The position numbers were made by a program, and so were the translations under genes. The notes below the pieces were generated by a model. That model made no database searches. It was not told where the DNA came from and worked only from the letters and a program-made list of their open reading frames with translations. Source: a virus. Taken from it: a stretch of DNA of 64,000 nucleotides. Shown piece by piece: positions 2,682 through 32,692 of the stretch. Position 1 is the first letter of the stretch, and each line of letters begins with the position of its first letter. Location of the stretch: IMG/VR virus record IMGVR_UViG_3300046002_001345, positions 3,489 through 67,488 of that record; one strand, given 5' to 3'.

Positions 2682-2682
2682 G

Positions 2683-2711: not shown

Positions 2712-2717
2712 AATACA

Positions 2718-4536: not shown

Positions 4537-4698
4537 ATGGCATCACTTAAAGACTTAGTTAAGCAAGCACTAGAAAAGAAACAAGCAGAACAACACGGTG
4601 TTAACACAGATCTTACTGTTGATACTGGCAAAGGTGCACCTAAAGGTAAAGTAACATCAAATAAACCTGCTAAGAAATCAGCCGGAAGAGGACGTTAA
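4537..4698 (+). CDS. small basic protein (start corrected from 4495 to 4537)
   Basis: AAGGAG RBS directly before ATG 4537; MASLKDLVKQAL...KKSAGRGR. Confidence 0.7.
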   Translation: MASLKDLVKQALEKKQAEQHGVNTDLTVDTGKGAPKGKVTSNKPAKKSAGRGR

Positions 4699-5663: not shown

Positions 5664-6971
5664 TTAATATTTAGAATTGTAATAATCTTTTAACCAGGTC
5701 CAATCGTAGGTTAACATTAACTTATCATAATTGCCATCGACTTGTTCGTAGTATTCTTTGGCATCTTTAGACCCTAAGATGCTCCATTCTGCGTTTAACC
5801 CTTCTGCTTCATTTAGCCAAGTATCTAAACGGTATTGACTTTCTATACTGTTAGTTTTCTTAACGTCATCAATTAACTTAATAACTTCTCTAAAAGCAGT
5901 ACGCCAGGTCATTAAGGGATCTGAATTGTAATACGCAGTACCGCTGGATATAGGAACTACTTCGTGTGGTTGACTTAGAGTAAAATCAAGATCTGTAGTT
6001 TCAGTTGCTAATACCAATCGCTTATTATACGCAACCATGGCCATATGCCCGTATCGTAATCCATTTAGCGGATTATCAGCATAAAAAATATAATGTTTAG
6101 GCTCTTGTAAATAGTCAGGTTGCCAAGACCAATCAAACTCCGGATTAACTTTAAGTTTAGCTGGTACTTTAAAGAACCATTCCGTATCACTCATCTCTGC
6201 AGCAACTTTGAATGCGTTGTCTCTACCATTGATATTCTGCACACGTTTAACCTTCTGGTTAGAGGAGGTAGATAAGTGTTCATATAGCTGATCAGCATTT
6301 GTCTCACCGTTGCTGATATAGATAATATCAAGATTTTTATCGCCTAAAAACCAGTCTTTTTGCTTCAAAACATACGGATAATCATAGATTTGATGCTTTA
6401 AATGTGCGGAAATTTCACGGGGTACTAACGATACGCTGTTTGCTCTGTTAAAGGTGTGTACACTTCGGTCTCGCCATAATATAGGCGCAAAGTTTATAGT
6501 AGTATCTATATCACGTTTGAACAGTACATATGGTGTGTCGAACTTAGTAGCCTTAACTACGTCTATTAGATCATCGCCGGTATACGTTACAGTAGGGGGA
6601 GTTAAGCGTGATACCCCTGGGTAATGCCAATTAACTTCCTTATACCATTCTAATAAAGGTATGTCCTTTTGTTGCTCAAACTCACTCACGTTAACTAAGA
6701 ATGTGTCACCAAACTTTTCGTGATCGCTGTGCCAGCAGTGTAGTTGATAGGCTTCCCATGGAACAGGCTTATAGTCAAAATCAAAATTACTGTAGTCACA
6801 AACACTTGATATCACCCAAGCGTAAGGGGTTCTACAACGTGAAATACAGCGTTTTAACGTGTCTAAGTGATTATCGTAGTATCTTACCACACGAGCATGC
6901 GGAAAGCGTAGTACAAGGTCTTGTACATTAGCGTCATTGCCGCCCATGTCCATGATGAAGATATCAAACAT
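5664..6971 (-). CDS. glycosyltransferase-like protein with two GT-A-like modules, apparently degenerate
   Basis: C-terminal half aligns by eye with 22345..23244 (DIIYISNGE, KRVQNINGRDNAFKVAA, WRTAFREVIKL) but has VPAKL where the paralog has IDGDN. Confidence 0.6.
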   Translation of the reverse strand: MFDIFIMDMGGNDANVQDLVLRFPHARVVRYYDNHLDTLKRCISRCRTPYAWVISSVCDYSNFDFDYKPVPWEAYQLHCWHSDHEKFGDTFLVNVSEFEQQKDIPLLEWYKEVNWHYPGVSRLTPPTVTYTGDDLIDVVKATKFDTPYVLFKRDIDTTINFAPILWRDRSVHTFNRANSVSLVPREISAHLKHQIYDYPYVLKQKDWFLGDKNLDIIYISNGETNADQLYEHLSTSSNQKVKRVQNINGRDNAFKVAAEMSDTEWFFKVPAKLKVNPEFDWSWQPDYLQEPKHYIFYADNPLNGLRYGHMAMVAYNKRLVLATETTDLDFTLSQPHEVVPISSGTAYYNSDPLMTWRTAFREVIKLIDDVKKTNSIESQYRLDTWLNEAEGLNAEWSILGSKDAKEYYEQVDGNYDKLMLTYDWTWLKDYYNSKY

Positions 6972-7386
6972 CTAGTTGTTCTACTTGGATGCCGGAATTA
7001 CGAAGAAAAGTGATCCCACTATCATCCCTGTAATTAATTGCGTAGTAGACATGCTTAATACCTGATTGATAAATGAGTTTGGCGCAATCGAGGCAAGGAC
7101 TATGTGTAACAAATAAAGTTGCATCGAGGCCAGACTCACTACTCCTAGCGAGTTTCGCAATAGCGTTCGTTTCTGCATGTAATACCTCCGGTTTAGTTTT
7201 AATAGTTCCATCTTCTAATTCAAGTTCACAATTGTTATCCCACCCTGCTGGCATCCCATTGTAACCAATTGATATAATTCTGTCATCTTTGACAATAAGG
7301 GCTCCCACTTTAAGTCTACGTGCTGTGCTTAAATTACTGTAGATGTGTGCGGCCCGCATGTGTGCTGTTTGATACTTAGGCTTCAT
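6964..7386 (-). CDS. cd: dCMP deaminase (start corrected to 7386)
   Basis: VGALIVK, SIGYNG, HAETNAI and SPCLDC zinc motifs; AGGA RBS before MKPKYQ. Confidence 0.93.
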   Translation of the reverse strand: MKPKYQTAHMRAAHIYSNLSTARRLKVGALIVKDDRIISIGYNGMPAGWDNNCELELEDGTIKTKPEVLHAETNAIAKLARSSESGLDATLFVTHSPCLDCAKLIYQSGIKHVYYAINYRDDSGITFLRNSGIQVEQLDV

Positions 7387-7813
7387 TATAATAATTCCTA
7401 AATTGATCTGCAATTACCCGAGTCCAGGGCATTGCGTCTAATTCTCTTATGTGATAATTGTAATGAGTAGGGGCTTCAAATATCTTATTAGTATCTGCAT
7501 ACCGACTTGTTGTAATTGTGTCCATCCAAACTACAATATCCGGGTTAAAGATATTTCTAAGTTTATGTGTAGGACAAACAAAGTCTGCTACTACAATGTT
7601 ATTCATAGTCTCTGCATTGCGAGCAAACCTGGCCATACGTTCTGCTTGTCGAATTCGCCCTTCTTCTGAAAAGTCCCAATCGTTAAATGCTTCACGCATC
7701 CGATCAGCATTAAACCACTCAACACTACGACCAACTGCTTTGATATCTTCTACTAGTTTTTTTGCAAAGGTACTTTTACCACTGCCAGGTAATCCCATTA
7801 CTAGAATTCTCAT
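7376..7813 (-). CDS. adenylylsulfate (APS) kinase-like P-loop kinase
   Basis: MGLPGSGKST Walker A; NADRMR...DFSEEGRIRQ; VADFVCP; FEAP, all CysC-like. Confidence 0.75.
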   Translation of the reverse strand: MRILVMGLPGSGKSTFAKKLVEDIKAVGRSVEWFNADRMREAFNDWDFSEEGRIRQAERMARFARNAETMNNIVVADFVCPTHKLRNIFNPDIVVWMDTITTSRYADTNKIFEAPTHYNYHIRELDAMPWTRVIADQFRNYYNEA

Positions 7814-8622
7814 TTGAAGTCCTTGTCTTTATATTTGTCCCAATACTCTTTTGGATTAGTATATTTTAACATAAAATCTTCAGGATTGCAATATTGCAGA
7901 TTAAAATCATATGCTAGTTGCCTATGCCAATCAATGCCAAAATGTGCACCGTCACGAGCTTTAGTCCATGCCACTGTATTATATACAGTACGCACTGTAT
8001 CATCCCAGTTAATGCTTAATAATTTAAACTTATAAACTTCCTGTAGTAGCTGTAAGATTGTTTTATTTTTTGTTTGATTGTTATAGGCCGTATTATCTTC
8101 GTATTGTAGATTATCCTCTTCCATAGTCCATGCACCATTAAACACAGCACCGTTCTCGTATGTTTCAAATCTAAATAGACTTGGCCACATGACTGCTACA
8201 ATTGAAGGTTTAATAATAGGAATTAGGTTAACTGCCAATCTGGCCACAGTATCAGCGCCGGCGCCACCCAGTCCTGCATTGTAAACACTATAATCAGGAA
8301 AATAATCACGACCAAATTGTTCCGGCCAATTATCCTGTTGTGGAACTCCTACTCCAACAGTATGACTACAGCCGAACGTAAGAATTATAGGATTCATTCC
8401 ATTGAGATCAAATTCGCAACTTCTGAAACCGTGTGAATTATATTTGTAGGTAAAACTATCAGCACGCCAATTTGGATGTCCTTGGTGTCTAGTCCCTTGT
8501 ATATTATTAAATCGTTCTTCACTGTCTAAATCAGACAGGCTAAACGCCATCTCTTGATCACGGGGGTATGTGCCAAGATCTAATGTACTACCTAAAGCCC
8601 AGTAATTATTTTGAGTTGTCAT
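7810..8622 (-). CDS. SGNH-fold protein with N-terminal YKYNSHGFR segment
   Basis: NSHGFR, FGCSHTVGVG, NAGLGGAG, VMWPSLFRFE and RDGAHFG motifs. Confidence 0.7.
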   Translation of the reverse strand: MTTQNNYWALGSTLDLGTYPRDQEMAFSLSDLDSEERFNNIQGTRHQGHPNWRADSFTYKYNSHGFRSCEFDLNGMNPIILTFGCSHTVGVGVPQQDNWPEQFGRDYFPDYSVYNAGLGGAGADTVARLAVNLIPIIKPSIVAVMWPSLFRFETYENGAVFNGAWTMEEDNLQYEDNTAYNNQTKNKTILQLLQEVYKFKLLSINWDDTVRTVYNTVAWTKARDGAHFGIDWHRQLAYDFNLQYCNPEDFMLKYTNPKEYWDKYKDKDFK

Positions 8623-9529
8623 TTTTAATTTTGCGCTTTAACACGTTTTCTTTTGATTGAGGGAACCAATGTATATTTTGCTCACGTCCGTTCGGACATA
8701 CATCACATTCGGGTATTGGTTGAGCTTCAGTACGTTCAAAATAATCTATATCTTCTTGGGTTGCAGTTTTTAAATCGATCGGTTTATAATTTAAATATTT
8801 TTGCCAGTCCGGGTCATCTAACTGATTAGTTTCTGTTAGTACTTTAGGCAATGCTAATAACCTAGGGCATTTGTATAGTTTACTGTCTATGGCCGCCGCA
8901 CAAAACGGACTAATACATCCTATCTTAAAGGAACCATCTGGGTCGTTAGTAGCAAAAGGTTTTATTTTACCACCGACCATTTTAAACTGTGCTTTAAATC
9001 CGTGTTCATGAAACGTATGCAACATAAAATCAATCTTATTATCAGGAATATCATAATGCATATCATGTATCTTGTGTATACGGGGATGACTTAAAAAATA
9101 TTTTAAATTTTCATAATATTTTTGTGCTTCTTTACTATCTGCAAATCCTGCCAAATGATCATCAATTGATAAACGTATATTACCCACTTCTAAAAATAAA
9201 TCAACGATGTCGTCTCTAAATTTGTGTATCAGTAATGCATTTGTACTAATATTAATAATTGAATTTGGAAAAAGTTTTCTAACATGCCGTGCCATAGGTA
9301 CTACTTTTTCATGCCAATACAGTGTAGGTTCACCGCCGACTAATGTAATCATATTAGTAACATCGTCGACATAGTTAGCAAAATTAGAAATAGTTTCTAA
9401 AATACTTTCTATACTTGGGTCGTAGTCTTTATGAAAAATAATGTCCGAACCACTATTGCACCCCTTACAGGCCAGGTTGCATTTAAACCCATAATAAAAA
9501 TTCATTATTTGAAGTTTAATTTTTTTCAT
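8606..9529 (-). CDS. radical SAM protein with C-terminal Cys-rich auxiliary-cluster region
   Basis: CNLACKGC, GGEPTL, STNA; C-terminal GCISPFC, YKCP and ECDVCP. Confidence 0.88.
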   Translation of the reverse strand: MKKIKLQIMNFYYGFKCNLACKGCNSGSDIIFHKDYDPSIESILETISNFANYVDDVTNMITLVGGEPTLYWHEKVVPMARHVRKLFPNSIINISTNALLIHKFRDDIVDLFLEVGNIRLSIDDHLAGFADSKEAQKYYENLKYFLSHPRIHKIHDMHYDIPDNKIDFMLHTFHEHGFKAQFKMVGGKIKPFATNDPDGSFKIGCISPFCAAAIDSKLYKCPRLLALPKVLTETNQLDDPDWQKYLNYKPIDLKTATQEDIDYFERTEAQPIPECDVCPNGREQNIHWFPQSKENVLKRKIKNDNSK

Positions 9530-11022
9530 GAGCAGACTTTAACCCCGTATAACTGTTCAAATCGATCTGCGTCTGCACGATCGTTAACCATTGGTTCGCC
9601 ACGGATGTTTAAACTAGTATTAAGTAGCATAGGACACCCCGTCCACGTAAACCACTGCTCTAAGAGTTGTCTAATTCCTGAGCCATCATTTGGCACAGTT
9701 TGTACTCGACTTGTTCCGTCAACATGTACAATAGCAGGAAACAGATCAGGATGCTTACAGCGAGCTACGGTCTGCATATAAGGGCTACGATCCCACCCAA
9801 CAGGCATATCGAAGTATTCGTGTACTAGCTCTTCGAGTATAACTGGTGCAAATGGTCTAAACTTTTGTCTACGTTTAATTTCATTTACAGTATCCTTGAT
9901 CTCGGGTCCTCTAGGGTCTGCTAATAAACTACGATTACCAAGGGCTCGCGGACCAAATTCAGCCCGCCCACTCGCCACGCCACAAATCTTATTTGTGGTT
10001 AACTCGGAAATGATACTTTTAGTAGGGTAAGGACCACCAATATCGTAGCCAAGGAAAGCGTCTTTCCAAACCAATCTTCTGCCCACTGCCATTGCAGCCG
10101 CGCCAAGGCTAGACCCAGCATCGCCGGGATTAGGCATAATCCAAATGTTATCAAAGTATCCCCCTAATATTTTATTTGCACTACAGTTAAGTGCTACACC
10201 ACCACAATAGACTAAATTACTGTTTGGTGCTAAGTCGCTGGCCTTCATCATAATTGTTGCTATTAAATCTTCTGTAAGTTCTTGTGCAGCTCTGGCAGTG
10301 TCTTCATCTGACCAGTTACCTTTGATTTTGCCCGGTAGGCCAATGTGTAGGTTATGTTTAAAGATCATTGCTACTTCATCTTCTATTAGACTAGCTTTAA
10401 GATTATCTGCCTGAAACCAATTTGGTGCTCTGCCCCATCCAGCCATACCCATCAAGATATATTCTTCATCTAGAGGTTTAAGCCCCACACTTTTAGTAAA
10501 CGCACTGTACATCAATCCAATACTGTGTGGGTATTTTTGTCCCCAAACTTTATTGTACTGTGCATAGCCTTGTTCGTCGTAGTGTGCTGACCAAATACTA
10601 ATAGTATCCCATTCACCAATGGCATCAATGACTACCACAGTGGCTGTGTCAAAGGTACTTGTTTGAAATCCCGCTGCCGCATGACTAAGGTGATGATTAT
10701 ATGATTTAATAGGTAGCTTATGTAGGTTAAAATCAGGTAGCTGTTCTTTTATTAATCCCTTAACAGTCCACGGAGTTTTAAGTTCACTATACTGGCCAGC
10801 ATACAGTTGACGAGTCTTTTTAACCCACGGACGCTCATAGTAGGCAATACTGTCTATAGGGCCGTACTTAAGTGCGTCTTTAATCAGTTTAGGATGTAAG
10901 TTACTGTCGTGTTTACGTTTGCTGTAGCGTTCGCTATGCCCAGCAAATAAGATCTGACCTTGGTCGTTGATTAATGTTACAGCGGCATCATGGAAGCCGG
11001 CCGATATACCTAAGATGTTCAT
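9526..11022 (-). CDS. O-carbamoyltransferase (NodU/CmcH/TobZ family)
   Basis: FHDAA, HHLSHAA, DAIGE, GGVALNC, EFGPRALGNRSLLADP, FRPFAP, HVDGTSRVQTV and LLNTSLN motifs. Confidence 0.95.
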   Translation of the reverse strand: MNILGISAGFHDAAVTLINDQGQILFAGHSERYSKRKHDSNLHPKLIKDALKYGPIDSIAYYERPWVKKTRQLYAGQYSELKTPWTVKGLIKEQLPDFNLHKLPIKSYNHHLSHAAAGFQTSTFDTATVVVIDAIGEWDTISIWSAHYDEQGYAQYNKVWGQKYPHSIGLMYSAFTKSVGLKPLDEEYILMGMAGWGRAPNWFQADNLKASLIEDEVAMIFKHNLHIGLPGKIKGNWSDEDTARAAQELTEDLIATIMMKASDLAPNSNLVYCGGVALNCSANKILGGYFDNIWIMPNPGDAGSSLGAAAMAVGRRLVWKDAFLGYDIGGPYPTKSIISELTTNKICGVASGRAEFGPRALGNRSLLADPRGPEIKDTVNEIKRRQKFRPFAPVILEELVHEYFDMPVGWDRSPYMQTVARCKHPDLFPAIVHVDGTSRVQTVPNDGSGIRQLLEQWFTWTGCPMLLNTSLNIRGEPMVNDRADADRFEQLYGVKVCS

Positions 11023-11779
11023 ATATTAAATTTGCTGCCTCAATGTGTGCTTCTTCTCGCGGATGTGTTGTTGCGAAAGGAAACTTATTATCCTTTGCCC
11101 AAGTATAAAATCCTTTATGGCCAGAGAACCAATACCAATTATTTAAATTAAGTTGTTGCTGTAATGTTTTAATGCTAATATCATCTAGATGTTTATTAAC
11201 ATTATCTATTAGACACTCGTCTACTCCCAAAAACAAATAAGGTATATTACGTAATTCTAAATATTGTTGTAGTAGCACAATATCTAATAGACTATGGTAA
11301 ACTTCCCAATACTCGTATCCGCCAATCTTACTGTAAAATACACGAGCAAAATCACTTATACCCAATGTTTGTTCACGCTGTAATTTATCTAGATGGTGTT
11401 GAAATACTATAGGATTATCTATTTGAAAATCTTTTTTAATAGTTTTTTCTGCATTATCCGAAACACTCCAAGGACTGATCTGTTCCCAACTACTATTAAA
11501 ATTAAATTCGTATCTGCCAGGGAAACTCCAGGTAACTATTACTTGCTCAATATCGAGATATTGATCGCATGTATTCATTACACTGCGCCTAATTGCACTG
11601 TTACTGTATCCAGGTTCTGCAGCGCACACATACTCTAATCCCATATCTCTGGCTATTAATGCTGTGTAAGTATGTTGACTGGGCACTTCTTTAGGTGGTG
11701 CAGTATCGCTTAAGATAAAACAATCAGCAAGCTCGCTACCGTAAGTGAAACTATCGCCACCGGCTATCAGACATCCCAT
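10988..11779 (-). CDS. SGNH-fold protein
   Basis: GGDSFTYGSEL, PGYSN, VTWSFPGRYE and C-terminal TTHPREEAH. Confidence 0.75.
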   Translation of the reverse strand: MGCLIAGGDSFTYGSELADCFILSDTAPPKEVPSQHTYTALIARDMGLEYVCAAEPGYSNSAIRRSVMNTCDQYLDIEQVIVTWSFPGRYEFNFNSSWEQISPWSVSDNAEKTIKKDFQIDNPIVFQHHLDKLQREQTLGISDFARVFYSKIGGYEYWEVYHSLLDIVLLQQYLELRNIPYLFLGVDECLIDNVNKHLDDISIKTLQQQLNLNNWYWFSGHKGFYTWAKDNKFPFATTHPREEAHIEAANLIYEHLRYIGRLP

Positions 11780-12411
11780 CCCAATCCCTTCATATGGTTG
11801 TAAACTTTGTCTGCTACCATTTCATGACCACGATCTAAGAAATGTTTACGAGGACCTATTTCACTACCGTAGGTCCATTCCATCATAGTGTCAACCGGCC
11901 AACCTACATAAAATCTACCGTCAATTTGATCTAATAAATCTTTGTTGACTTCGGCGGTACGATTGTTTACTTGGTGATTGCCAAAACTATCTAGCATCAA
12001 ATATGGTTTATTATTGGCCTTAAAGAAGTTTTGTATTAGAATAATGTTTAGCAAATATTGTCTATACAAATAGTCATCATTATGATGGCGACTAAAATAA
12101 TCAATTATTTCCCAGCGCCAGTCGGCCCACCCTCTATGTGGCAAATGGCCACCGCCCGGCCATAAGTCGTAGAATCCGGCTTCGTCGGCCATTTCAATAC
12201 GTGCAAAATGACTCCAGGCAATGATAGCCATGTCGTAATTATTAACCTGCTCTACACAATGTCTAACCATACGAGTGTTGCCGCTACCGGGTTTGGCTAG
12301 ATTGGTAACTTCATAACCTAACTTAGTGCCTAAAAGAAAAGGCCAGGCGTTGTTTAAATCGCTTAGTTCTTCACCGTATGTAAAACTGTCACCTACTGTA
12401 AGTAATTGCAT
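11767..12411 (-). CDS. SGNH-fold protein
   Basis: VGDSFTYGEEL, NLAKPGSGN, IAWSHFARIE and C-terminal PRKHFLDRGH. Confidence 0.78.
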   Translation of the reverse strand: MQLLTVGDSFTYGEELSDLNNAWPFLLGTKLGYEVTNLAKPGSGNTRMVRHCVEQVNNYDMAIIAWSHFARIEMADEAGFYDLWPGGGHLPHRGWADWRWEIIDYFSRHHNDDYLYRQYLLNIILIQNFFKANNKPYLMLDSFGNHQVNNRTAEVNKDLLDQIDGRFYVGWPVDTMMEWTYGSEIGPRKHFLDRGHEMVADKVYNHMKGLGWDV

Positions 12412-12512
12412 TATTTGTAAATAAATGGATCTCTTTTACGCAATTCTTTCAACTTCTTACGATATGCTATTTCTAACTTGATACGATTAATAATGTTTTT
12501 TAACCAATTCAT
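12411..12512 (-). CDS. 33-aa basic peptide MNWLKNIINRIKLEIAYRKKLKELRKRDPFIYK (not in ORF track)
   Basis: Translated by hand; AAGGAG RBS upstream; its TAA overlaps the ATG of the next gene (TAATG). Confidence 0.8.
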   Translation of the reverse strand: MNWLKNIINRIKLEIAYRKKLKELRKRDPFIYK

Positions 12513-13041
12513 TAAATTTCTCCTTAATTAATATAGAGGCTGCCAAATGTGCATGTTCCAATGGATGTCCATCTGGTCCTATATTGTACTTATTTTCAAC
12601 TGCCCATTGATAAAAGCCTCTTGGTTGTTGTGTTTCACCTGGTTCTGTACCCGCTGGGAATAAGTACCAATGGTCCCAGTTGGTTTTGGGGTCTAATAAC
12701 TCTATTAAACAGTTGTCTACACAGGTAAACAAGTAAGGCACATTGTGGTATTCGCAATACTGTTGAAACTCTAATATAACCCTAGGACTGGTATATACAG
12801 TATCTCTACTAGGCCAAGTCCAACACACAACCACTGCTTTAGGCAGACCTTGTTGTAACTCTGCCCTAGCACGTTCTGCAATCTCATAGTTACCTATGCC
12901 AGGATAGGCAGTACAGATATAATTATCACCTGCTAATAATGCAGTAAATGTATTACGACTGTACCCATTTGGTCCGCAATGCGGGCTATCTTGTAGCTCA
13001 CTGCCCCATACCATACTATCGCCACTGACTACTACTTGCAT
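12487..13041 (-). CDS. SGNH-fold protein
   Basis: SGDSMVWGSEL, PGIGN, VCWTWPSR; GFYQWAVENKY...GHPLEHAH matches GFYTWAKDNKF...HPREEAH of 10988..11779. Confidence 0.72.
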   Translation of the reverse strand: MQVVVSGDSMVWGSELQDSPHCGPNGYSRNTFTALLAGDNYICTAYPGIGNYEIAERARAELQQGLPKAVVVCWTWPSRDTVYTSPRVILEFQQYCEYHNVPYLFTCVDNCLIELLDPKTNWDHWYLFPAGTEPGETQQPRGFYQWAVENKYNIGPDGHPLEHAHLAASILIKEKFNELVKKHY

Positions 13042-17621: not shown

Positions 17622-18927
17622 ACTGTCTTAGATCCTTATACTCTGTAAACACATCTTCAAATCTTTCTTTTCTATACTGATCATGTATATCGTTTACACG
17701 AAAAAACTCTCGAAGCAAATGGCTATTATCGTTAGCATTCATAAAGTGTAGCATACCCTCATAACCACTAGTGGCACGTTGTAGGTGATCTTGTGGGCGT
17801 AGCCAATCAATATGTTCTTGCACTTTAGCTGTTACTTGTTCTTTATACCGGTGTGGCAGAATATCAATACGATCGCGGTCAGGACCTTGCAAGATATTAA
17901 CATTCCAATCCTGTGCTCGTAAATAGCCTCGATCAACCCAATTACGATGAAAATCTGTTACATGATTAGCATTATAAAGACTTACCGTTGAGCTAACATA
18001 AAAGTCAGTGTTGGGGCAACGTTTCATCATTTCTTCACGATTACGCTCAATTTGATCCCACTTAGTACCTTTACGTATATATTCGCCGTGCGCAAACATA
18101 CCGTCTAGGCTAGCACCAACACTGACATTCTTAAATAATCTCCAGTAATCTAGTACATTGTCATCTTTAAGATGTAGACGACTGAAGTTTGTGTTATAAA
18201 TCAATTTAACATCAAACATCTCACGAGCTGCTAGTTCTTTAAGAATCCAGAAATGTTCCTCCATCATCAGAGGTTCACCACCGGCAAAATAAACTTGTTC
18301 TAAGTATGGTATGTGTTCCTGTAGTTGATTCCACATGTCGTGCTCATCGCGACCAGCAAACATGATCTTAGGATAACTACGTTTACCATATAGTTGTTCT
18401 TCTTCTGCGTACCAACTTGAACTAAACCAGCCGCCACAGGTACGGCAGGTAAAGTTACATAGGTTACTGAAACGTATGTCATAGTAACGTAATTTAAAAT
18501 CATCGAACTGTCCATCGGGTAGTGTTTGATCTACTATCTCAATGTGCTGTCCAAAGTTTTTATTTGTGCTGTTACGCATGCTTACAAATCCACTAGCTTC
18601 CTGCTCGTAGCATTTACTACATTCTTTGCAGGGCTTTTCTTCCAGCATGTTTTTACGCATGGTCTTATATGCGTCTTGATTCCAAACAGTAGCCATGCTA
18701 TCTTGTTTGAAGTTACCGATAGGATGACGATCATCACCTAGACAGCAAGGATAAGCACGACCATCAGGAAAGCCATGCATGTGTATCCAAGGTATCATAC
18801 AGAATACATCACTCTTGGTCAGGCGATCTAACTGATCAGGACGTAGATCATCTTCACTGATATACACTGGTTTACGTGTATGATAGTGATGATTTTTATA
18901 GTAGTCGTTTTGTTGCTGATCGCTCAT
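17611..18927 (-). CDS. radical SAM protein with N-terminal twitch/SPASM-like domain
   Basis: CMIPW...YPCC...ECSKCY precedes CNFTCRTC, GGEPLM and YNTNFS. Confidence 0.93.
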   Translation of the reverse strand: MSDQQQNDYYKNHHYHTRKPVYISEDDLRPDQLDRLTKSDVFCMIPWIHMHGFPDGRAYPCCLGDDRHPIGNFKQDSMATVWNQDAYKTMRKNMLEEKPCKECSKCYEQEASGFVSMRNSTNKNFGQHIEIVDQTLPDGQFDDFKLRYYDIRFSNLCNFTCRTCGGWFSSSWYAEEEQLYGKRSYPKIMFAGRDEHDMWNQLQEHIPYLEQVYFAGGEPLMMEEHFWILKELAAREMFDVKLIYNTNFSRLHLKDDNVLDYWRLFKNVSVGASLDGMFAHGEYIRKGTKWDQIERNREEMMKRCPNTDFYVSSTVSLYNANHVTDFHRNWVDRGYLRAQDWNVNILQGPDRDRIDILPHRYKEQVTAKVQEHIDWLRPQDHLQRATSGYEGMLHFMNANDNSHLLREFFRVNDIHDQYRKERFEDVFTEYKDLRQYVA

Positions 18928-19586: not shown

Positions 19587-20959
19587 AGAGTATCGTACCA
19601 GTCTGCTATTTGTGGAAAAGTATATTTAAAGTCTAGACCACGTCGCCGGTCGTATTGCTGATAAAAGTTTTTAAAGTCACGTTGTAGAATCTCACGCGAT
19701 AGTGCTCCGCTGTGTGGACTATCTACTGTCTGCAGATATTCAATTAATCTTTGTAATTGATTAAATTCAAACTCATGCATATCCGTCCACGCCGCCTTGC
19801 CAAATTGTTGTAGTTCTTCTGCGTATTGTTCACGCACCTCTAGCGGTAAAATTAACGGACTTTGGAAACTTGGAAAGCGTAAAATGTTTAGACTAAAGTT
19901 AATACTATCCTTGCCATACTTTTGTTTAAGTTTGACTATCATCCATAGTAGATCTGTTAAACTTAATAAGCATAGGGCATTGATTGTACACATAACGTGG
20001 AGCCCACGCAACTTACCGCTATCCAATAAGAACATAACATTATTAACCCACTGATCCCAATCCAAGCCATCGCGTATATACATTGCGTGACGACCCCAAC
20101 TTTCATTGCTTGTGTATAAATCCAGTTCAATACCATCTGTAGCATCCAATAAGTGTTCTAATTTATCTTGTTCGTAGGCCAGGTTACTATTGATTGCTAG
20201 GCGTGTAGTACTTTGTCCTTTGTTCTTTTGGAACCAATCAATCAGACGCCATGTATATCCGCTCATTAAAGGCTCGCCACCTGTGATGCGTAGTTCTTTT
20301 AATGTTCGGTGTAGGTCTGACTCCCACCAAGCAAAGAACGCTTCAACGTAAGGATTAACTTGATCAATAGTAAAAAGTTGACTACTATCGTGAGTGTGAG
20401 TAAAGTGATTGCGTCCGTCAGATACAAGATGTTCATAGGCTCCATTGCGTTTAATATCTCTAACCCAGGAGGTACTGAAAGCAGGGTTACAATAACTACA
20501 AGCAAGCTGACAAGTTCTGTCGAATGCAATTTCCAAAGTTTGTAAGTTGACATCTTGATACCACCCAAGTTTATACGCATCATCTAAATCCTTATCATCA
20601 TATATTACTGTTTTGTACACACGATCACTAATTGGCTCAGGAACATCCTGGCCTGCATACTTGGGATCTTTATACATGTCTTCAATCTTCCAGCAGTACT
20701 CGCAGCCACTAGGACGTTCTCCGGCATGCATCTGTCTGCGCTGTTCTTTCTTTTGGGGTGTGTTATGCAAGGCACTAGGATTGCTTAGTATTGCTTCTTT
20801 ATCAATAGCATGTGGTAAAGGGTGGTGACAACTAGTAGTTTGTCCACTGCCTAACCATATAGTAGCGTTGTACCACTTGGCCGCACAGAAGCTTTCGCTC
20901 TTAATGTCAATCACTCTACGCTTGTATTGTAGATCTGTTTCGTTAGCTATTTTCGGCAT
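19583..20959 (-). CDS. radical SAM protein, CxAKW/SCxHP N-terminal subfamily
   Basis: FCAAKW...SCHHP...GCEYCW precedes CQLACSYC and GGEPLM. Confidence 0.92.
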   Translation of the reverse strand: MPKIANETDLQYKRRVIDIKSESFCAAKWYNATIWLGSGQTTSCHHPLPHAIDKEAILSNPSALHNTPQKKEQRRQMHAGERPSGCEYCWKIEDMYKDPKYAGQDVPEPISDRVYKTVIYDDKDLDDAYKLGWYQDVNLQTLEIAFDRTCQLACSYCNPAFSTSWVRDIKRNGAYEHLVSDGRNHFTHTHDSSQLFTIDQVNPYVEAFFAWWESDLHRTLKELRITGGEPLMSGYTWRLIDWFQKNKGQSTTRLAINSNLAYEQDKLEHLLDATDGIELDLYTSNESWGRHAMYIRDGLDWDQWVNNVMFLLDSGKLRGLHVMCTINALCLLSLTDLLWMIVKLKQKYGKDSINFSLNILRFPSFQSPLILPLEVREQYAEELQQFGKAAWTDMHEFEFNQLQRLIEYLQTVDSPHSGALSREILQRDFKNFYQQYDRRRGLDFKYTFPQIADWYDTL

Positions 20960-22352
20960 GCCATTTGCACTCCTGCCAAAACTCTTTCATCTGTGGAAAT
21001 ATATCTGTAAAGTATCCTATATCCGTTTCGTATGCTCCTCTACGTTTGTCATATTCATTAAAGAATCGATAGAAGTCCGCACGTTGTTCGTTGATATACT
21101 TTTCTGTAAGCTTCTTGCCATTCTTCATCCAAGCAAGGTCACGTTCCATACGTTGTATTTCGTAGTCTTTGAATCCATCAAATCTATTTTCACCTTCTTT
21201 AATCTGATATTGTTTCATCCACTTGATCACATCTTCTAAGATGCCTGTATAAGCTGGCGGAAGTATTTGTAGGCTTTGCCACTGTGGCGTTCTCAACACA
21301 GGAGTATCAAACCAAACACGTTGATAGGTTGTGCTGTGTAGTTTGCGCAATACTAAAATGTGTTCTAATAGTCTTTGTAGACCTAAGATACTAAGGTTAT
21401 TCATTGTGATGATAAACGTTAAGCTATTACGTCCAGGAATCTCAGTTAAAAAACGATTAGTATAATCATTAACTCTATTAGAATTCAAACCACGACGAAT
21501 ATATTCAGCATGTTCAGGTATACCTGTATCTAAACTTACATACTGCATAAAGTGTTCAATCTTTGTACCAGTACACAAGTCTTTTACTTTGTCTAGATAC
21601 TTTTCAAACAAACCAGGTTCAACACTGAAGTTACTAGTAACATCTACGTGTAAATCACTCTTAGGACTTGCTAAGATATAATCAAACACACGATGCGTAT
21701 TCTTATCCATTAGCGGCTCACCACCAGTCATTCTAAAGTGTTTTAAGCTACCGTATAGTTCTGGCCACCATTTCCAGAACGCTTCTACGTAAGGATTATG
21801 ATCTTTAACAGGAATAGGTTGTCTACGACCTTTAAAATGACTAGGGTCGTTGTGTGGTTTTGCTGTGGGATATGCTCCCCAGCGATCAATATCTTTCTGC
21901 CACTCTGTACTAAACTGTGGACTGCAATAACTGCATGCTAGGTTACAACCGTGACTAAAGTTTACCTCAACATAACTCGGAGTAACATCGGCATCCCACG
22001 GTAGGGCTTTAATAGTATCATAGTGTTCGGAGGCCCACGGCTCGCCACTGCGATAGTGACGATCACTTAAGTGACCAGTATCTTCTATATGCCAACAGTA
22101 ATTACACTCTTTAGGTTTTTCACCTTCGAGCATTTTCTTACGTTGTTCTTTTTTATGCTGTGTGTTGTGTAGGGCACTAGGATGAAACTCAACTACCTGT
22201 GCATCAATTTCGTGCAATGGTGGATGGTAACAGCTATTGTTAAGCCCAGTAGGCAAATGTAGGCTTACTTGTTGCCATTTAGCCAAACATAAACTAGGAC
22301 CTAATTTGTCCTTCATTTCTTCTGCAGCCGACATGAATACTGATTTACTCAC
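20943..22352 (-). CDS. radical SAM protein, CxAKW/SCxHP N-terminal subfamily
   Basis: CLAKW...SCYHP...ECNYCW precedes CNLACSYC and GGEPLM; paralog of 19583..20959 (both NPYVEAF.xWW). Confidence 0.92.
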   Translation of the reverse strand: MSKSVFMSAAEEMKDKLGPSLCLAKWQQVSLHLPTGLNNSCYHPPLHEIDAQVVEFHPSALHNTQHKKEQRKKMLEGEKPKECNYCWHIEDTGHLSDRHYRSGEPWASEHYDTIKALPWDADVTPSYVEVNFSHGCNLACSYCSPQFSTEWQKDIDRWGAYPTAKPHNDPSHFKGRRQPIPVKDHNPYVEAFWKWWPELYGSLKHFRMTGGEPLMDKNTHRVFDYILASPKSDLHVDVTSNFSVEPGLFEKYLDKVKDLCTGTKIEHFMQYVSLDTGIPEHAEYIRRGLNSNRVNDYTNRFLTEIPGRNSLTFIITMNNLSILGLQRLLEHILVLRKLHSTTYQRVWFDTPVLRTPQWQSLQILPPAYTGILEDVIKWMKQYQIKEGENRFDGFKDYEIQRMERDLAWMKNGKKLTEKYINEQRADFYRFFNEYDKRRGAYETDIGYFTDIFPQMKEFWQECKWHAENS

Positions 22353-23244
22353 GGTTCATTATTCCTTTGTTTACAAAATTACTCTTGTAATGATGTTTAA
22401 AAAATTTACTTTCTGCTGGATCCATATCTATAATAGGTAATCCCAATCGTGTACGAAGTATCTGACCTAACCGTTGGCAATGTTCTACTGGTTCATTGAT
22501 ACTTTCGTATTCCTTCCATAATGCCCCGAGCGCATCAAAGTCTTGTACCTTACGATAATCCCAATCTTCTAACATTGTTAAATACGTACCTTGACGTGAT
22601 CCAACTATAGCCCAAAAACCATTCTCTACGTCTGCGCCTACGGTTTGCCAAATACATAAGTTATCATAGTTACGACTATGTACACGCTGTTCGAAGTCTT
22701 CTAATGAAGGCTTTGTTCCACGATCTAAACACATCTTAACACCCTCACGGAAGCCCGCTCGCCATGCTTGGAAAGGTGTTTGGTTTGGATAGGTTGTTGA
22801 ATAGCAGTCACTCATAGCCCAATAGTTAGGATAGAAACAAAACTCTACATCATTTTCGGCTGAGCCGTCTGATGCTTCATGCGTTTTCATCTGATTGACG
22901 AAATCCTTTGTCCAACAAGATAAGCCACCGTTGCCGTATTGTAGGCCATTAATGTAATTACGAGCACGCCAACGGAAAACGCAATCTCTATTAGTTTCAT
23001 CGAGTTTAAGTTGAAGGTTAAAGAACTCGGGGTTAGGGAGGTTGTCACCGTCAATGAGGATAAACCGATCAGTGCCACTGGCACTAGCGGCCGCCTTGTG
23101 AGCCGCGTCACTGCCCTTGACTCCATCAACTCTAGTAGCCCAAGGAACCATGTTTTGTATCTTAATCCAATTTTGCTCTTTGTTAGGTTCGTCGTAGGTT
23201 AGGTAAACTACGTCTAAGTCTGCTATATCAACTATTTGGCTCAT
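22345..23244 (-). CDS. GT-A fold glycosyltransferase-like protein
   Basis: DVVYLTYDEP, RVDGVKGSDAAHKAAA, FILIDGDN (DxD), YGNGG and AWRAGFREGVKM. Confidence 0.65.
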   Translation of the reverse strand: MSQIVDIADLDVVYLTYDEPNKEQNWIKIQNMVPWATRVDGVKGSDAAHKAAASASGTDRFILIDGDNLPNPEFFNLQLKLDETNRDCVFRWRARNYINGLQYGNGGLSCWTKDFVNQMKTHEASDGSAENDVEFCFYPNYWAMSDCYSTTYPNQTPFQAWRAGFREGVKMCLDRGTKPSLEDFEQRVHSRNYDNLCIWQTVGADVENGFWAIVGSRQGTYLTMLEDWDYRKVQDFDALGALWKEYESINEPVEHCQRLGQILRTRLGLPIIDMDPAESKFFKHHYKSNFVNKGIMNRE

Positions 23245-23596
23245 AATATTCTACACTATCATAGGTTTCATCTAGCTCTAAGATTAGGCCAGCATGATGT
23301 TTTACAGTTTTAAATCCTTGATTACTACGCTTTAATTGTACACTCACTCCGGGGTTCATGTCAATCTTTATTAACCGTTTTTTCACAATATCTACATGAT
23401 ATTGAGTATAGTTGTTATATGTTTCTCGATCAACTACGATATATTGTTCACTTTCTGGATGTTTCTGCATACTACACATATGAATAGCACCAGTTTCGTC
23501 ATAGTGTAAGCGATATTCTATAGGTTCCGGTACAATAGCCATGGCGGCCATAGCAGAGTTAAACTCATCTAACCATTCTTGCGAATTCATCTGCAT
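23228..23596 (-). CDS. hypothetical protein
   Basis: 122-aa ORF overlapping both neighbours in the operon. Confidence 0.7.
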   Translation of the reverse strand: MQMNSQEWLDEFNSAMAAMAIVPEPIEYRLHYDETGAIHMCSMQKHPESEQYIVVDRETYNNYTQYHVDIVKKRLIKIDMNPGVSVQLKRSNQGFKTVKHHAGLILELDETYDSVEYYEPNS

Positions 23597-24434
23597 ACTC
23601 CTTGATTAGTTCGTCTGTAACCCATGCTTTATCTTGATAGTGCAAGGGATGGTATTGATTAATGTTATTAATTCTAACCATTGGCACAGGTGTCTCATAC
23701 ACTACTAAATTGTGCCACGGTGTTGCTGTACTAAACTTATTAATTTTTGGCTTCATATGTGTAAAGTTAATAAAATCTACACCAGGTATAGTACAGACTT
23801 CTTCTCCCACAATCTTAGCGGCCAATGCATATACTACATCAGTAGTTGGCTGTTCGTCATAACACTTAATTAAGGTATCTTTAACCGTAGTCCAGTTTTG
23901 AAATATCTGTCGAGCATACCAAAAGAACTCTGCGGCTTCTTGGCTATAACGGAAATACATAATGCCATTATAAACATCAGGTAGTTGGTTGTCATCAAAC
24001 ACTTGTCTATATGTTCTGTCATCACTGAGTTTGCCTAGATAATCTCTACATCCTTGGCCAAGTACAATGTTTTTAAGTCTAAACGTAGTCCACCAATGCG
24101 CTATGCTACGAGTGAATACAATGTCGCTTTCTAATTTGATTGTTTCTTTAAACGGCGTTAGATAAAACGCCTGCCATTCATTAGACAATTTCCATTCAAC
24201 GTTAGCTGCTTCGTCGTTCTCAATGGTAGTAACATAGTCGAATACCTTGCGATGCTCATCTGTCACTAGCTCTAAGGTAGCTTGATCAACTGCTACTGCA
24301 TACAAACTACCTGGCATAGTTATCTTAATGCTCAGAGCTTGCAAGTATGCTAGGCGCAGATAATCCACATCTAAGGTATTCTGTGCAATAGTAAAAAATC
24401 CTTGCTGTGCTTGATATTGATCTACTTTGCGCAT
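23565..24434 (-). CDS. nucleotide-diphospho-sugar transferase-like protein (GT8-like)
   Basis: LALSIK-like segment, YLTPFKETIKLESDIV, YNGIMYF, TDVVYALA and FTHMK. Confidence 0.65.
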   Translation of the reverse strand: MRKVDQYQAQQGFFTIAQNTLDVDYLRLAYLQALSIKITMPGSLYAVAVDQATLELVTDEHRKVFDYVTTIENDEAANVEWKLSNEWQAFYLTPFKETIKLESDIVFTRSIAHWWTTFRLKNIVLGQGCRDYLGKLSDDRTYRQVFDDNQLPDVYNGIMYFRYSQEAAEFFWYARQIFQNWTTVKDTLIKCYDEQPTTDVVYALAAKIVGEEVCTIPGVDFINFTHMKPKINKFSTATPWHNLVVYETPVPMVRINNINQYHPLHYQDKAWVTDELIKEYADEFARMVR

Positions 24435-25231
24435 ATCGTATCTACAAAGTCTTTAAAGTTATCTGATAGCAAATAGCCTTTATCCATAACGTGTATGTTC
24501 TGACGAGGGATTACGTATCCCCTTTCTCGTTCTTTAACTACTAGCATAGAATTCTTCACAGTGATACTAGTTGTAACATCAGCAAAGGTCAGCATTGGTG
24601 TAACTATACCTTGGTCAAAATTTGGATCATAGCCGTTTAGAATATTGTTAGCAATAGTAAAAGCATAGTCGTTACGAAAGTTTCCCTCACGCATATGATA
24701 TAGTTTCATGTAGTAGGTATAGTTGCGTTGTATACGGCCCACCAGGTCAAACAACATTTTTGTTTTAGCTGTTTTGCGGAATAGAATGACTGTAGCCCAA
24801 AGATAATCAAGACCAAACATGCCCATCTTTAACTTCCACGCCGTAGCAGGTTTATTATTCCAACTCATTATCCGATAATCAAAGTCTTGCTCAAATAATT
24901 TAATTAAATTAGTATCAAGCATTAGATAATCGCTGTCTATTAGAATAGTTTCATCGTAAGGACTTAGTTCATATGCTCTAAAACGATCGCCATTGCGCCA
25001 GCTGCCTTCTACATCTATTTTGCGATTTTTAAGTTCGTTACTGACATAGACTATGTTGTCAAAGCCCTGTGCTGTAGTTCCGTGCTCTGTAACTAAGGTA
25101 ACAGGTAATCCTGTAGTATGTTTAACTAGTCGTGCGCAATGTTCAGCTATAGTAACGTAGCTGGTCTTTTCTGTGTCAAAAGCAAAAAGCAGTACTCCTC
25201 TAGACTTTGCGGGCACGTTTGATTTCGTCAT
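24422..25231 (-). CDS. nucleotide-diphospho-sugar transferase-like protein (GT8-like), paralog of 23565..24434
   Basis: YELSPYDETILIDSDYL (DxD), WATVILFRK, FRNDYAFTIA and NIHVMDK. Confidence 0.68.
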   Translation of the reverse strand: MTKSNVPAKSRGVLLFAFDTEKTSYVTIAEHCARLVKHTTGLPVTLVTEHGTTAQGFDNIVYVSNELKNRKIDVEGSWRNGDRFRAYELSPYDETILIDSDYLMLDTNLIKLFEQDFDYRIMSWNNKPATAWKLKMGMFGLDYLWATVILFRKTAKTKMLFDLVGRIQRNYTYYMKLYHMREGNFRNDYAFTIANNILNGYDPNFDQGIVTPMLTFADVTTSITVKNSMLVVKERERGYVIPRQNIHVMDKGYLLSDNFKDFVDTICAK

Positions 25232-25514
25232 GTTGGATATGCCAGGTGTTCATTACCATTTGATAATGTTGTCGACACAATGTCAGAAGCTCGAGCCTAC
25301 TAACTAGTATTGGATTTTGATAGGTATCTTCTAGATATAACTCATCAGAGTCCCAGGCATTAAGGAACGCTATTAGCTCTGGGGTAACTTTAAACAGGCC
25401 GCTATTGTGTGTTACCTGTAGATCTGTTTGAATTTTTTCTCGTAAGATACGTTTGTTGACTTGATAGTCAGTGGCTAAACGTATTTCTTGGGTAAGGTTG
25501 TCTAAGTCGCTCAT
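25200..25514 (-). CDS. hypothetical protein, first gene of the modification operon
   Basis: 104-aa ORF directly after a late-type promoter; LEDTYQNPILV is weakly reminiscent of tail-fibre assembly proteins. Confidence 0.7.
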   Translation of the reverse strand: MSDLDNLTQEIRLATDYQVNKRILREKIQTDLQVTHNSGLFKVTPELIAFLNAWDSDELYLEDTYQNPILVSRLELLTLCRQHYQMVMNTWHIQHDEIKRARKV

Positions 25515-25519
25515 ACTAG

Positions 25520-25527
25520 TAATTATC
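25520..25527 (-). promoter_or_regulatory. late-promoter variant GATAATTA inside a 7-bp inverted repeat
   Basis: One mismatch to GATAAATA; same 5-nt spacing to ATG as at 32685 and 51162; flanked by ATACTAG/CTAGTAT. Confidence 0.55.
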
Positions 25528-25547: not shown

Positions 25548-25569
25548 AAAAAAGCAACCGAAAAGGTTG
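25548..25569 (-). terminator. probable intrinsic terminator after the tail-fibre genes
   Basis: Minus strand CAACC-TTTTC-GGTTG hairpin followed by CTTTTTT immediately after the stop of 25571..26491; stem is short. Confidence 0.55.
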
Positions 25570-28375: not shown

Positions 28376-28383
28376 TATTTATC
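28376..28383 (-). promoter_or_regulatory. T4-type late promoter (GATAAATA)
   Basis: Intergenic, CTAAGATAAATA context identical to that at 50745; upstream of fibre gene 26503..28350. Confidence 0.7.
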
Positions 28384-28388
28384 TTAGT

Positions 28389-32684: not shown

Positions 32685-32692
32685 TATTTATC
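32685..32692 (-). promoter_or_regulatory. T4-type late promoter (GATAAATA)
   Basis: Intergenic TAAGATAAATA followed by 5 nt and ATG. Confidence 0.7.

Follow-up and report, generated by a model that had tools for sequence, protein, structure and literature searches.

Organization of the operon

The stretch of DNA analysed here, hereafter the window, comprised 64,000 nt of the IMG/VR virus record IMGVR_UViG_3300046002_001345, and the system in question was a block of minus-strand genes located next to the tail fibre genes. From 25514 to 5664, the minus strand contained 22 open reading frames (ORFs) of at least 60 aa plus one 33-aa ORF (12411–12512), and all 22 gene junctions overlapped, by 1 to 56 nt each. 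The same 23 overlapping genes had been described in an earlier note made from this sequence, which counted six radical S-adenosylmethionine (SAM) enzymes, five SGNH-fold proteins, five glycosyltransferase (GT)-like proteins, a carbamoyltransferase, an adenosine phosphosulfate (APS) kinase-like protein, a 33-aa peptide (PEP), a deoxycytidine monophosphate (dCMP) deaminase and three unknowns, and which took them for a late operon that builds and tailors a glycan. The features were as follows.

25571–26491, minus: fibA, 306 aa, closing the fibre block, 51% Ser/Thr/Asn/Gly; operon neighbour and candidate acceptor
25555–25569, minus: terminator-like hairpin (CAACC/GGTTG stem plus T-run) between fibA and g01
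25200–25514, minus: g01, 104 aa, conserved first gene, no Pfam or PHROG match; best-match ORF in 52 related loci
24422–25231, minus: g02, GT8/glycogenin-like GT-A candidate
23565–24434, minus: g03, GT8/glycogenin-like; phrog_1903
23228–23596, minus: g04, 122 aa, conserved, no family match; in 49 loci
22345–23244, minus: g05, GT-A-fold, glycosyltransferase-like
20943–22352, minus: g06, N-terminal-twitch radical SAM (NF033640), 289.3 bits
19583–20959, minus: g07, N-terminal-twitch radical SAM (NF033640), 285.8 bits
18924–19586, minus: g08, SGNH-like (GCS block I), accessory; in 8 loci
17611–18927, minus: g09, N-terminal-twitch radical SAM (NF033640), 395.8 bits
16428–17621, minus: g10, N-terminal-twitch radical SAM (NF033640), 343.1 bits
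15380–16435, minus: g11, variable family, multi-copy in relatives; weak GT10 (fucosyltransferase) lead
14095–15435, minus: g12, N-terminal-twitch radical SAM (NF033640), 293.1 bits
13032–14120, minus: g13, 362 aa, conserved, fold found only in phages
12487–13041, minus: g14, SGNH-like, GDS block I
12411–12512, minus: PEP, 33-aa basic micropeptide with invariant DPFIYK end
11767–12411, minus: g15, SGNH-like (DUF6071, PF19547)
10988–11779, minus: g16, SGNH-like
9526–11022, minus: g17, ATP-dependent carbamoyltransferase of the NodU/TobZ/NovN type
8606–9529, minus: g18, radical SAM of another type (not NF033640), accessory; PF04055, 40.8 bits; in 3 loci
7810–8622, minus: g19, SGNH-like (GCS...DGAH), accessory
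7376–7813, minus: g20, P-loop kinase, APS-kinase-like; in 25 loci
6964–7413, minus: g21, dCMP deaminase (PF00383, 80.9 bits); in only 3 related loci
5664–6971, minus: g22, 435 aa, C-terminal half homologous to g05
4698–5663, plus: nucleoside diphosphate (NDP)-sugar epimerase/dehydratase of the short-chain dehydrogenase/reductase (SDR) type, convergent with g22; PF01370, 160.3 bits

Judged by family profiles, the earlier inventory was essentially right, and the observation as a whole was partly confirmed. The radical SAM core of Pfam was found in six genes, five of which belonged to NF033640; the carbamoyltransferase, the kinase-like protein, the deaminase and the epimerase abutting the 3′ end on the other strand were each recognized by their families; and g01, g04 and g13 were still without assignment. 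The SGNH-fold genes were moderately supported as five. As for the GT-like genes, g02, g03, g05 and g22 were supported, but g11 gave only a weak lead. The deaminase g21 probably belongs to ordinary nucleotide metabolism and lies outside the cassette proper.

For g01, g02, g04, g13 and g22, neither Pfam nor PHROGs produced a useful match, and g11 had no PHROG match; fibA matched no Pfam, PHROG or NCBIfam family. No membrane-like segment was present in any operon protein (maximum KD19 = 1.82), and no flippase, polymerase, priming (lipid-carrier) transferase or transporter was found in the operon by Pfam-type family scans.

Conservation and synteny in related phages

A search of IMG/VR with g09 recovered 56 loci at 41–92% identity. 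The recurring order was fibB-fibA-g01-g02-g03-g04-g05-g06-g07-(g08)-g09-g10-(g11)-g12-g13-(SGNH)-g17-(g19)-g20-(g21)-g22, with g08, g11, g18, g19 and g21 as accessory genes. The genes g05, g06, g07, g09, g10 and g12 were collinear in 44 of 48 loci, and the other four had no g10 match above the thresholds. Synteny with the fibre genes, which the earlier note had proposed to examine across related contigs, was found within one clade: fibA lay directly upstream of g01 in 41 of the 43 loci having at least 1 kb of upstream sequence. The fibre proteins contained 42–51% Ser/Thr/Asn/Gly.

When the 19.9-kb block was compared by megablast with 50,697 deposited phage records, none matched. Cultured phages with homologues of the N-terminal-twitch enzymes were limited to Vibrio phages K566 and K567 and Ralstonia phage RsoM2USA. 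The latter carried a mini-module in the order of SGNH-like, g07-like radical SAM, a gene of unknown type, the peptide, SGNH-like and carbamoyltransferase, and its g07 homologue was 50% identical.

N-terminal-twitch radical SAM enzymes

Five operon proteins (g06, g07, g09, g10, and g12) exceeded the NF033640 cut-off of 170 bits, with NCBIfam scores of 285.8–395.8 bits, while g18 scored 24.6 bits and fell outside the family. All five showed the traits of NF033640, namely an N-terminal Cys auxiliary-cluster domain (twitch/SPASM-like) and an intact CxxxCxxC core. Pfam placed a SPASM domain at residues 43–106 of g09, ahead of the radical SAM core (152–311), and at residues 7–76 of g10, ahead of Radical_SAM (118–284). 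In the alignment of the five paralogues, C43, C62, C103, C106, C157, C161, and C164 were invariant, as were CxxxCxxC and GGEP. Pairwise identity was only 21–33%; the five are old, intact paralogues.

The solved structure nearest to the N-terminal-twitch proteins was a cyclopropyl synthase (8VPO, E = 1e-7), followed by viperin, SkfB, BlsE, anSME, MoaA, and BtrN, and these matches covered the generic radical SAM core only. No publication on NF033640, or on radical SAM enzymes with an N-terminal twitch or SPASM domain, was found; the family is catalogued only.

In bacteria, NF033640 scored above its cut-off in two of 401 Pseudomonadota and three of 401 Bacteroidota genomes, and in none of 14 control and five arbitrary genomes. 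The genes were in tandem in four of the five positive genomes. Gene context was annotated for two of the six loci fetched. The Pseudomonadota locus, which was chromosomal and flanked by dnaE and accA, was in the order of RmlC, RmlD, Wzm, a Wzt-radical SAM fusion, three N-terminal-twitch radical SAM enzymes, a TylF-type O-methyltransferase, a methyltransferase and a WbsX glycosyltransferase. In the fusion protein (854 aa; L329:8579–11143, genome G106 contig 19), an N-terminal-twitch radical SAM enzyme was joined to the Wzt ABC ATPase and the carbohydrate-binding Wzt_C domain. The Bacteroidota locus held two N-terminal-twitch enzymes, a carbamoyltransferase, two GDSL proteins, a polysaccharide deacetylase and a B12-radical SAM protein; thus, the trio of radical SAM, SGNH and carbamoyltransferase recurs without any phage. 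Since the bacterial NF033640 genes were rare, in tandem, located in polysaccharide loci and once fused to Wzt, these contexts offer independent evidence that the family, and the trio with it, may tailor glycans.

Glycosyltransferase-like proteins

For the genes on which Pfam was silent, family alignments were built from the related contigs and run as profiles. The g03 family matched glycogenin-1 (GT8) in the PDB with E = 2e-4, over profile positions 4–112 only. Comparison of the g02 and g03 families with hhalign (probability 99.1%, E = 4.9e-19) identified them as paralogues, and the family alignments contained invariant Asp residues (D99 and D101 in g02, D104 in g03). No match to the GT8 family of Pfam itself appeared even at E up to 5.

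The AlphaFold (AF2) model of g05 (predicted local distance difference test, pLDDT, 87.8) was compared with the PDB by Foldseek. SunS, a peptide S-glycosyltransferase, matched at 5.5e-5 and the capsid glycosyltransferase A64R of chlorovirus PBCV-1 at 4.9e-4; the ten matches with E ≤ 1e-3 comprised nine glycosyltransferases, among them also ThuS, HAS, RmlT, and WrtF, and the sugar nucleotidyltransferase HddC, and TarS/TarP matched as well. The template modelling (TM) score of these matches was only ~0.3 because only one domain aligned. The model thus predicts a GT-A fold for g05, which was also the best conserved of the four families aligned for profiles (g02, g03, g05, and g13), with a mean column identity of 69%. 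The C-terminal half of g22 matched g05 (BLAST 2.6e-14).

The nearest named Atlas clusters of g11 were GT10 at 0.80–0.81, below the usable mark of 0.9. Its alignment showed an invariant E245-K246 inside an FVTEK consensus, plus K249-P250, and we take this FxTEK motif to resemble that of GT10. Sequence-profile searches of the PDB gave best E-values of 0.68 for g02 and 0.14 for g05 and no match for g11 or g13, and Pfam gave none for g11.

SGNH-like proteins, carbamoyltransferase and adjacent genes

Five proteins (g08, g14, g15, g16, and g19) were moderately supported as SGNH-like by sequence comparison. The g15 protein matched DUF6071 (PF19547) with 38.5 bits against a cut-off of 27. For g08 the same family gave E = 0.0037, and BLAST connected g16 with both g08 (3e-6) and g14 (3.4e-14). 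A joint profile of g08, g14, g15, and g16 (A8) matched the GDSL protein 4rsh at E = 3.3e-5. The alignment of 61 sequences contained a Gly-Asp/Cys-Ser block, and G7, S9, G13, H190, and H196 were invariant. For a bacterial Lipase_GDSL_2 protein, BLAST gave g19 as the best match.

Both domains of the carbamoyltransferase g17 scored above their cut-offs: Carbam_trans_N (Kae1-like, PF02543) with 124.6 bits and Carbam_trans_C (YrdC-like, PF16861) with 164.5 bits. Its closest PDB relatives were the O-carbamoyltransferases NovN (9e-48), GdmN and TobZ (1e-33). The NodU equivalog NF041651 (cut-off 1000) gave 143.7 bits, which places g17 in the same superfamily and not as NodU itself. The P-loop protein g20 matched PF01583 with 44.1 bits, and homologues ~50% identical to it were also found near PEP in another phage lineage. 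For the convergent SDR gene, the best NCBIfam match was dTDP-glucose 4,6-dehydratase (135.4 bits, below its cut-off); the gene occupied the same position in loci L016, L056, and L105 and was also present in L058, L100, and L214.

The AF2 model of g13 (pLDDT 85.3) had no fold match in the PDB (best E 0.2) and nothing usable in the Atlas. In BFVD its fold relatives were ten uncharacterised phage proteins, with E up to 8.7e-7. This gene directly precedes the peptide in several relatives.

A different, peptide-less tailoring cluster was seen in the cultured Pelagibacter phage Mosig (L183, 61148–72587), where a carbamoyltransferase lies among three radical SAM genes annotated as MoaA, a sugar aminotransferase, a methyltransferase, nitroreductase-domain genes and an epimerase.

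The 33-aa micropeptide

Besides RsoM2USA, 45 of the 56 related loci yielded PEP. While the adjacent enzymes were 30–60% identical, the C-terminal 17 residues of PEP were nearly unchanged, and by this measure PEP is the most conserved gene of the operon. A degenerate DNA pattern for K-x-DPFIYK matched at least 120 stretches in IMG/VR, and the following figures refer to the 80 loci listed. DPFIYK stood at the exact end of a short ORF in 77 loci and within two residues of the end in two; the remaining one was a chance match. The residues before the searched motif were also conserved, as [YF][RK]K[KR][LI]KEL[RK]KR, with synonymous codons varying freely at the conserved positions, which points to selection at the protein level. 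A PEP profile searched against 1.84 billion cluster representatives collected 532 members at E up to 1e-3. Among the best 150 of these, almost all were 29–76 aa long, the match was C-terminal and no enzyme fusion was evident.

A carbamoyltransferase homologue was present in 46 of the 80 listed loci, and its start codon often overlapped the PEP stop codon. Among the matches listed, the gene after PEP at 111 distinct sites was SGNH-like in 38, a carbamoyltransferase in 31 and another gene in 35, with the locus ending in seven. PEP is a partner of carbamoyltransferase and SGNH genes also outside this cassette. In a second giant-phage lineage (contigs with CheckV completeness of 9–23%, genomes of ~350 kb), the PEP-carbamoyltransferase pair was located between Toprim primase and DnaB-type helicase genes. 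The earlier note had undervalued this ORF: new in the present analysis is that the best-conserved gene of the operon belongs to a family of 532 representatives and usually lies directly upstream of a carbamoyltransferase or SGNH gene.

Several searches gave no further relatives. PHROGs returned nothing for the PEP of the window (best E 0.19 among the four variants tried), tblastn against cultured phages found RsoM2USA only, and a full-text literature search for the motif found no publication. In the carbamoyltransferase-bearing cultured phages P-RSM4, C48C1, and Mosig, no DPF[IV]Y peptide occurred within 4–6 kb on either side of the carbamoyltransferase. In bacterial genome collections, the K-x-DPFIYK pattern gave seven genuine members among 80 listed loci, on contigs of metagenome-assembled genomes from several phyla (L199, L205, L214, L228, L233, L237, and L243). 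Five of these contigs carried more cassette genes and two the carbamoyltransferase only; we therefore rejected the idea that PEP is a bacterial gene, and the seven are probably misbinned giant-phage contigs. For a predicted complex of the carbamoyltransferase (A6) with PEP (A7), the score was 0.15 where the mark is 0.32, in a run without controls, which counts neither for nor against an interaction.

Two further forms of the peptide were observed. In loci L116 and L130, a KKDPFIYK tail ended a Cys-rich protein of ~70 aa or more, located between a portal-sized gene and scaffold/capsid genes, with no carbamoyltransferase nearby; the DPFIYK tail may be a portable module. In the 75-aa cluster representative P0002, a DPFIYK peptide of the jumbo-cassette type and a different one of the primase-lineage type stood in tandem, indicating that some phages carry two adjacent copies.

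Terminator and promoter

The fibre gene and g01 were separated by a 56-nt gap holding the terminator-like hairpin, in agreement with the terminator placed there by the earlier note, and most relatives carried a stronger hairpin and T-run at this position. The operon has its own intergenic region behind this hairpin, and the region is promoter-like in many relatives. In the window, g01 was preceded by GATAATTA, only 5 nt from the ATG, and by a sigma-70 match of only 9/12. Among 41 distinct fibA-g01 intergenic regions of relatives, sigma-70-type matches of at least 10/12 occurred in 18 and of at least 11/12 in 14 (shuffled controls: mean 1.2, maximum 4 in 200 shuffles), while a late-like octamer occurred in only eight. 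Neither a late-type promoter nor action late in infection, as had been claimed, was supported by these sites. In T4-type phages, sigma-70-type promoters mark early genes, and by that analogy a sigma-70-type promoter of the operon would be early.

Two promoter-like classes were seen in the window. A perfect TTGACA-17-TATAAT preceded the thymidylate synthase gene, and a (T/G/A)ATAAATA-type motif preceded structural genes. The latter class included three exact intergenic copies of TAAGATAAATA on the minus strand (28376–28386, 32685–32695, and 50745–50755), upstream of fibB, a 231-aa gene and the baseplate wedge gene, respectively. Allowing one mismatch gave six matches where 4.6 were expected, a count that 32 of 100 shuffles also reached; as a late-promoter core, this motif was not statistically established.

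Proposed function and possible acceptors

Here, we propose that the operon makes and extensively modifies a sugar structure, with soluble cytoplasmic enzymes acting on a phage-made polypeptide. We put this reading forward tentatively, at rather less than even confidence. In Module 1 (g01–g13), the glycogenin/GT8-like and GT-A transferases would start and extend the glycan, and the five N-terminal-twitch paralogues would each carry out a different radical step on it. In Module 2 (g14–g20), which would include the 33-aa DPFIYK peptide, the SGNH-like proteins would add or remove acyl groups, the NovN/TobZ-type enzyme would O-carbamoylate and the P-loop kinase would phosphorylate. The earlier interpretation was in this way partly supported as a whole. 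Building and tailoring of a glycan agrees with the bacterial polysaccharide loci of the N-terminal-twitch enzymes and with the folds or homology of g02, g03, g05, and g22, but that the product is a glycan, like each chemical step, we infer; the gene content, its conservation, the family memberships and the glycan context in bacteria are observed.

Since neither a membrane-like segment nor a transporter or primer turned up in the operon, a cytoplasmic acceptor is favoured, and we infer a phage-made polypeptide, not DNA or a lipid-linked host glycan. Synteny points to the Thr/Ser/Asn-rich fibre proteins encoded just upstream, which are a possible, if rather doubtful, acceptor. The micropeptide is a second, unlikely candidate, suggested by its conservation, its coupling to carbamoyltransferase and SGNH genes and two peptide precedents with NodU-like enzymes. 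A host lipid-linked glycan comes third, from the bacterial context and the promoter type.

Several observations weigh against the proposed reading. The synteny with fibre genes was seen within one clade, where the gene order is conserved anyway. The TTGACA-17-TATA[AC]T found before g01 in 18 of 41 relatives is of the same type as the thymidylate synthase promoter of the window, and such an early-type promoter fits poorly with virion decoration. In the other giant-phage lineage, primase and helicase genes flank the PEP-carbamoyltransferase pair, which is a long way from the fibre genes. The GT8 and GT-A similarities are weak (E ~1e-4, TM ~0.3) and do not tell whether the acceptor is a protein, a lipid or a sugar. 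Lipid-linked O-antigen pathways are where the bacterial homologues act, and this equally fits the editing of host glycans.

Virus-encoded protein glycosylation is reportedly known from chlorovirus PBCV-1, with its capsid glycosyltransferase A64R, and from mycobacteriophage virions. A64R, one of the top structural matches of g05 (E = 4.9e-4), resembles the present case as a soluble virus-encoded GT-A enzyme. To our knowledge, these systems have no tailoring set of radical SAM, SGNH and carbamoyl enzymes. A parallel in gene content is the host-recognition cluster of pelagimyophages, which are large marine T4-like phages: GTs, mostly GT8, and radical SAM cassettes adjoin the tail-fibre genes there as they do here (Zaragoza-Solas et al., 2020, PMC7029224). 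However, that phage group is a different one and its cluster is a variable island, whereas the operon described here is fixed and collinear, and the available part of that study mentions neither a carbamoyltransferase nor a peptide (PMC7029224).

Several hundred uncultured giant phages appear to devote 16–20 kb to this enzyme set, the cassette being present in at least 56 contigs and the peptide family comprising 532 representatives. The tie of N-terminal-twitch enzymes to glycans, here and in bacteria, would point to an undescribed radical chemistry on sugars, and the PEP-carbamoyltransferase pair is a compact, testable two-gene unit. The identity of the product would show whether the phages coat their fibres with sugar, a matter for host range and immune recognition, remodel the surface of the host or make a peptide-derived metabolite.

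Possible editing of host glycans or of the micropeptide

At the cytoplasmic face, the enzymes could instead modify O-antigen or capsule intermediates that the host carries on undecaprenyl, and so alter the cell surface, e.g., by blocking superinfection or re-adsorption of progeny. We consider this unlikely on balance. In the ABC-transporter-type O-antigen pathway, the polymer is finished in the cytoplasm, and bacterial N-terminal-twitch enzymes were found in a locus of this type, one of them fused to Wzt. Four tandem genes of this family lie there between wzm/wzt and the methyltransferase and GT genes. However, the phage operon has no transporter, membrane protein or lipid-carrier primer, and it adds GT8-like genes, the carbamoyltransferase and the micropeptide. 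Early expression would agree with the sigma-70-type promoters that 18 of 41 relatives carry, and in the available text the pelagimyophage authors favour a host-surface role for their GT genes (PMC7029224). However, the operon has candidate initiating GTs of its own in g02 and g03, which resemble the self-priming glycogenin. Host editing also needs a compatible polymer across very many hosts, yet the core enzymes were strongly conserved in the 56 contigs.

The micropeptide itself might be the substrate of the cassette. A GT8-like enzyme would start a sugar chain on its Tyr, the carbamoyltransferase would modify its terminal Lys or Tyr, or both would occur, and the radical SAM enzymes, SGNH proteins and kinase would tailor the product. 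This is improbable in our view; if it were true, hundreds of giant phages would make an undescribed virus-encoded glycosylated RiPP (a peptide made on the ribosome and modified after translation) or a metabolite bound to a carrier peptide.

A related possibility is a RiPP-like product without a virion role, for which the DPFIYK peptide would be the precursor and its C-terminal residues the core; the carbamoyltransferase would modify Lys or Tyr, the SGNH-like hydrolases would trim, and the twitch radical SAM enzymes and GTs would tailor the peptide into a small bioactive molecule. We regard it as distinctly unlikely. It is allowed by the conservation of PEP, which is under protein-level selection, was recovered in 45 of 56 related loci and ends in DPFIYK in 77 of the 80 further loci listed, by its place before SGNH (38) and carbamoyltransferase (31) genes at 111 sites among the matches listed, with 532 representatives in all, and by the crocagin and Std precedents. 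The crocagin core is said to be Ile-Tyr-Trp. According to the available text, crocagin derives from a 21-aa precursor with a Lys/Arg-rich leader and a core that includes Tyr20 and Trp21, and is made with a carbamoyltransferase (CgnI) and an esterase-type hydrolase (CgnD); related clusters have a GT in place of the carbamoyltransferase (PMC10070186). StdF, as far as the accessible part of its report goes, is a NodU-like enzyme that carbamoylates Lys in a conserved C-terminal motif (PMC13174530). SPASM/twitch radical SAM enzymes are also typical RiPP maturases (PMC11002830).

The likeness, as far as these partial sources allow, lies in a short basic precursor with a conserved C-terminal end, beside a NodU-like carbamoyltransferase plus an esterase-type hydrolase. 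The differences from the crocagin and Std pathways as described there are that the window contains no CgnB/CgnE-like binder, no 2-oxoglutarate dioxygenase (CgnC), no YcaO and no MNIO, and that their hosts are bacteria and not phages. In the two annotated bacterial loci, the N-terminal-twitch enzymes stand beside polysaccharide genes, not peptide genes, and neither locus has PEP. Conversely, most PEP sites outside this clade have no N-terminal-twitch gene nearby. The g13 protein has no fold match to solved structures and no other candidate peptide-binding protein was identified, and the window contains neither a protease nor an exporter.

DNA hypermodification as an unlikely alternative

Decoration of a hydroxylated pyrimidine in phage DNA by the GTs, the kinase and the carbamoyltransferase, which the earlier note had offered as an alternative, was weakened to a very small chance, since the thymidylate synthase of the window is canonical and no second homologue was found in five related large records. 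The window protein scored 358.5 bits against the NF002497 cut-off of 327 and has His147 and Asn177 in PPCH...GVPFNIASY, with dihydrofolate reductase (DHFR) adjacent. In each of the five records, of which two have completeness ratings of 100% and 92%, exactly one thymidylate synthase homologue was found, always with Asn (GVPFN[IV]ASY). A search of these records for Tet_JBP was empty, but equally so in all controls.

The precedent for this alternative is a phage NodU-type carbamoyltransferase that converts 5-hydroxymethylcytosine (5hmC) in DNA, RNA and 5hmdCTP to 5-carbamoyloxymethylcytosine (Yang et al., 2021, PMC8670742). It was found by MetaGPA and belongs to the same superfamily as g17, but, in the part of that report available, it co-occurs with an Asp177 thymidylate synthase homologue making 5hm-dCMP, whereas the sole homologue here has Asn177 (PMC8670742). 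The contact of the operon 3′ end with nucleotide-metabolism genes, the PEP-carbamoyltransferase pair between primase and helicase in another lineage and the early-type promoter in relatives would also fit. However, the published routes of DNA glycosylation examined start, in the portions available, from a thymidylate synthase-type hydroxymethylase/hydroxylase or from a methyltransferase plus TET, with radical SAM and carbamoyl steps unmentioned. A dCMP deaminase occupied the g21 position in only three related loci; with this, and with the synthase canonical, the deaminase and thymidylate synthase were dropped as parts of a modification pathway.

Phage placement and other features of the window

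The source record comprised 67,488 bases with a CheckV completeness of 19%, so the full genome would be ~350 kb. The baseplate wedge protein of the window showed 34–37% identity with its counterparts in Agrobacterium phage Atu_ph07, Sinorhizobium phage Phosso, Salicola phage SCTP-2, and Escherichia phage 121Q, and on this basis the phage is a distant giant myovirus of the T4 superfamily.

Situated between fibre block and baseplate wedge gene, a single ORF of 4857 aa (32714–47287, minus) presumably encodes a giant virion or fibre protein. A protein of 1062 aa (53225–56413, minus) has an N-terminal endolysin-like domain (phrog_2649, residues 4–133) fused to a virion structural protein family, and by its sequence it is probably a tail-associated lysin. 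The ORF at 53–616 (plus) had no NCBIfam match; it ends in ...IADGYHPNQQAHEQW..., which resembles SGNH block V, and may be a sixth SGNH-like gene, located outside the operon. The genes of DHFR and the canonical thymidylate synthase are located at 2184–3596 (plus).

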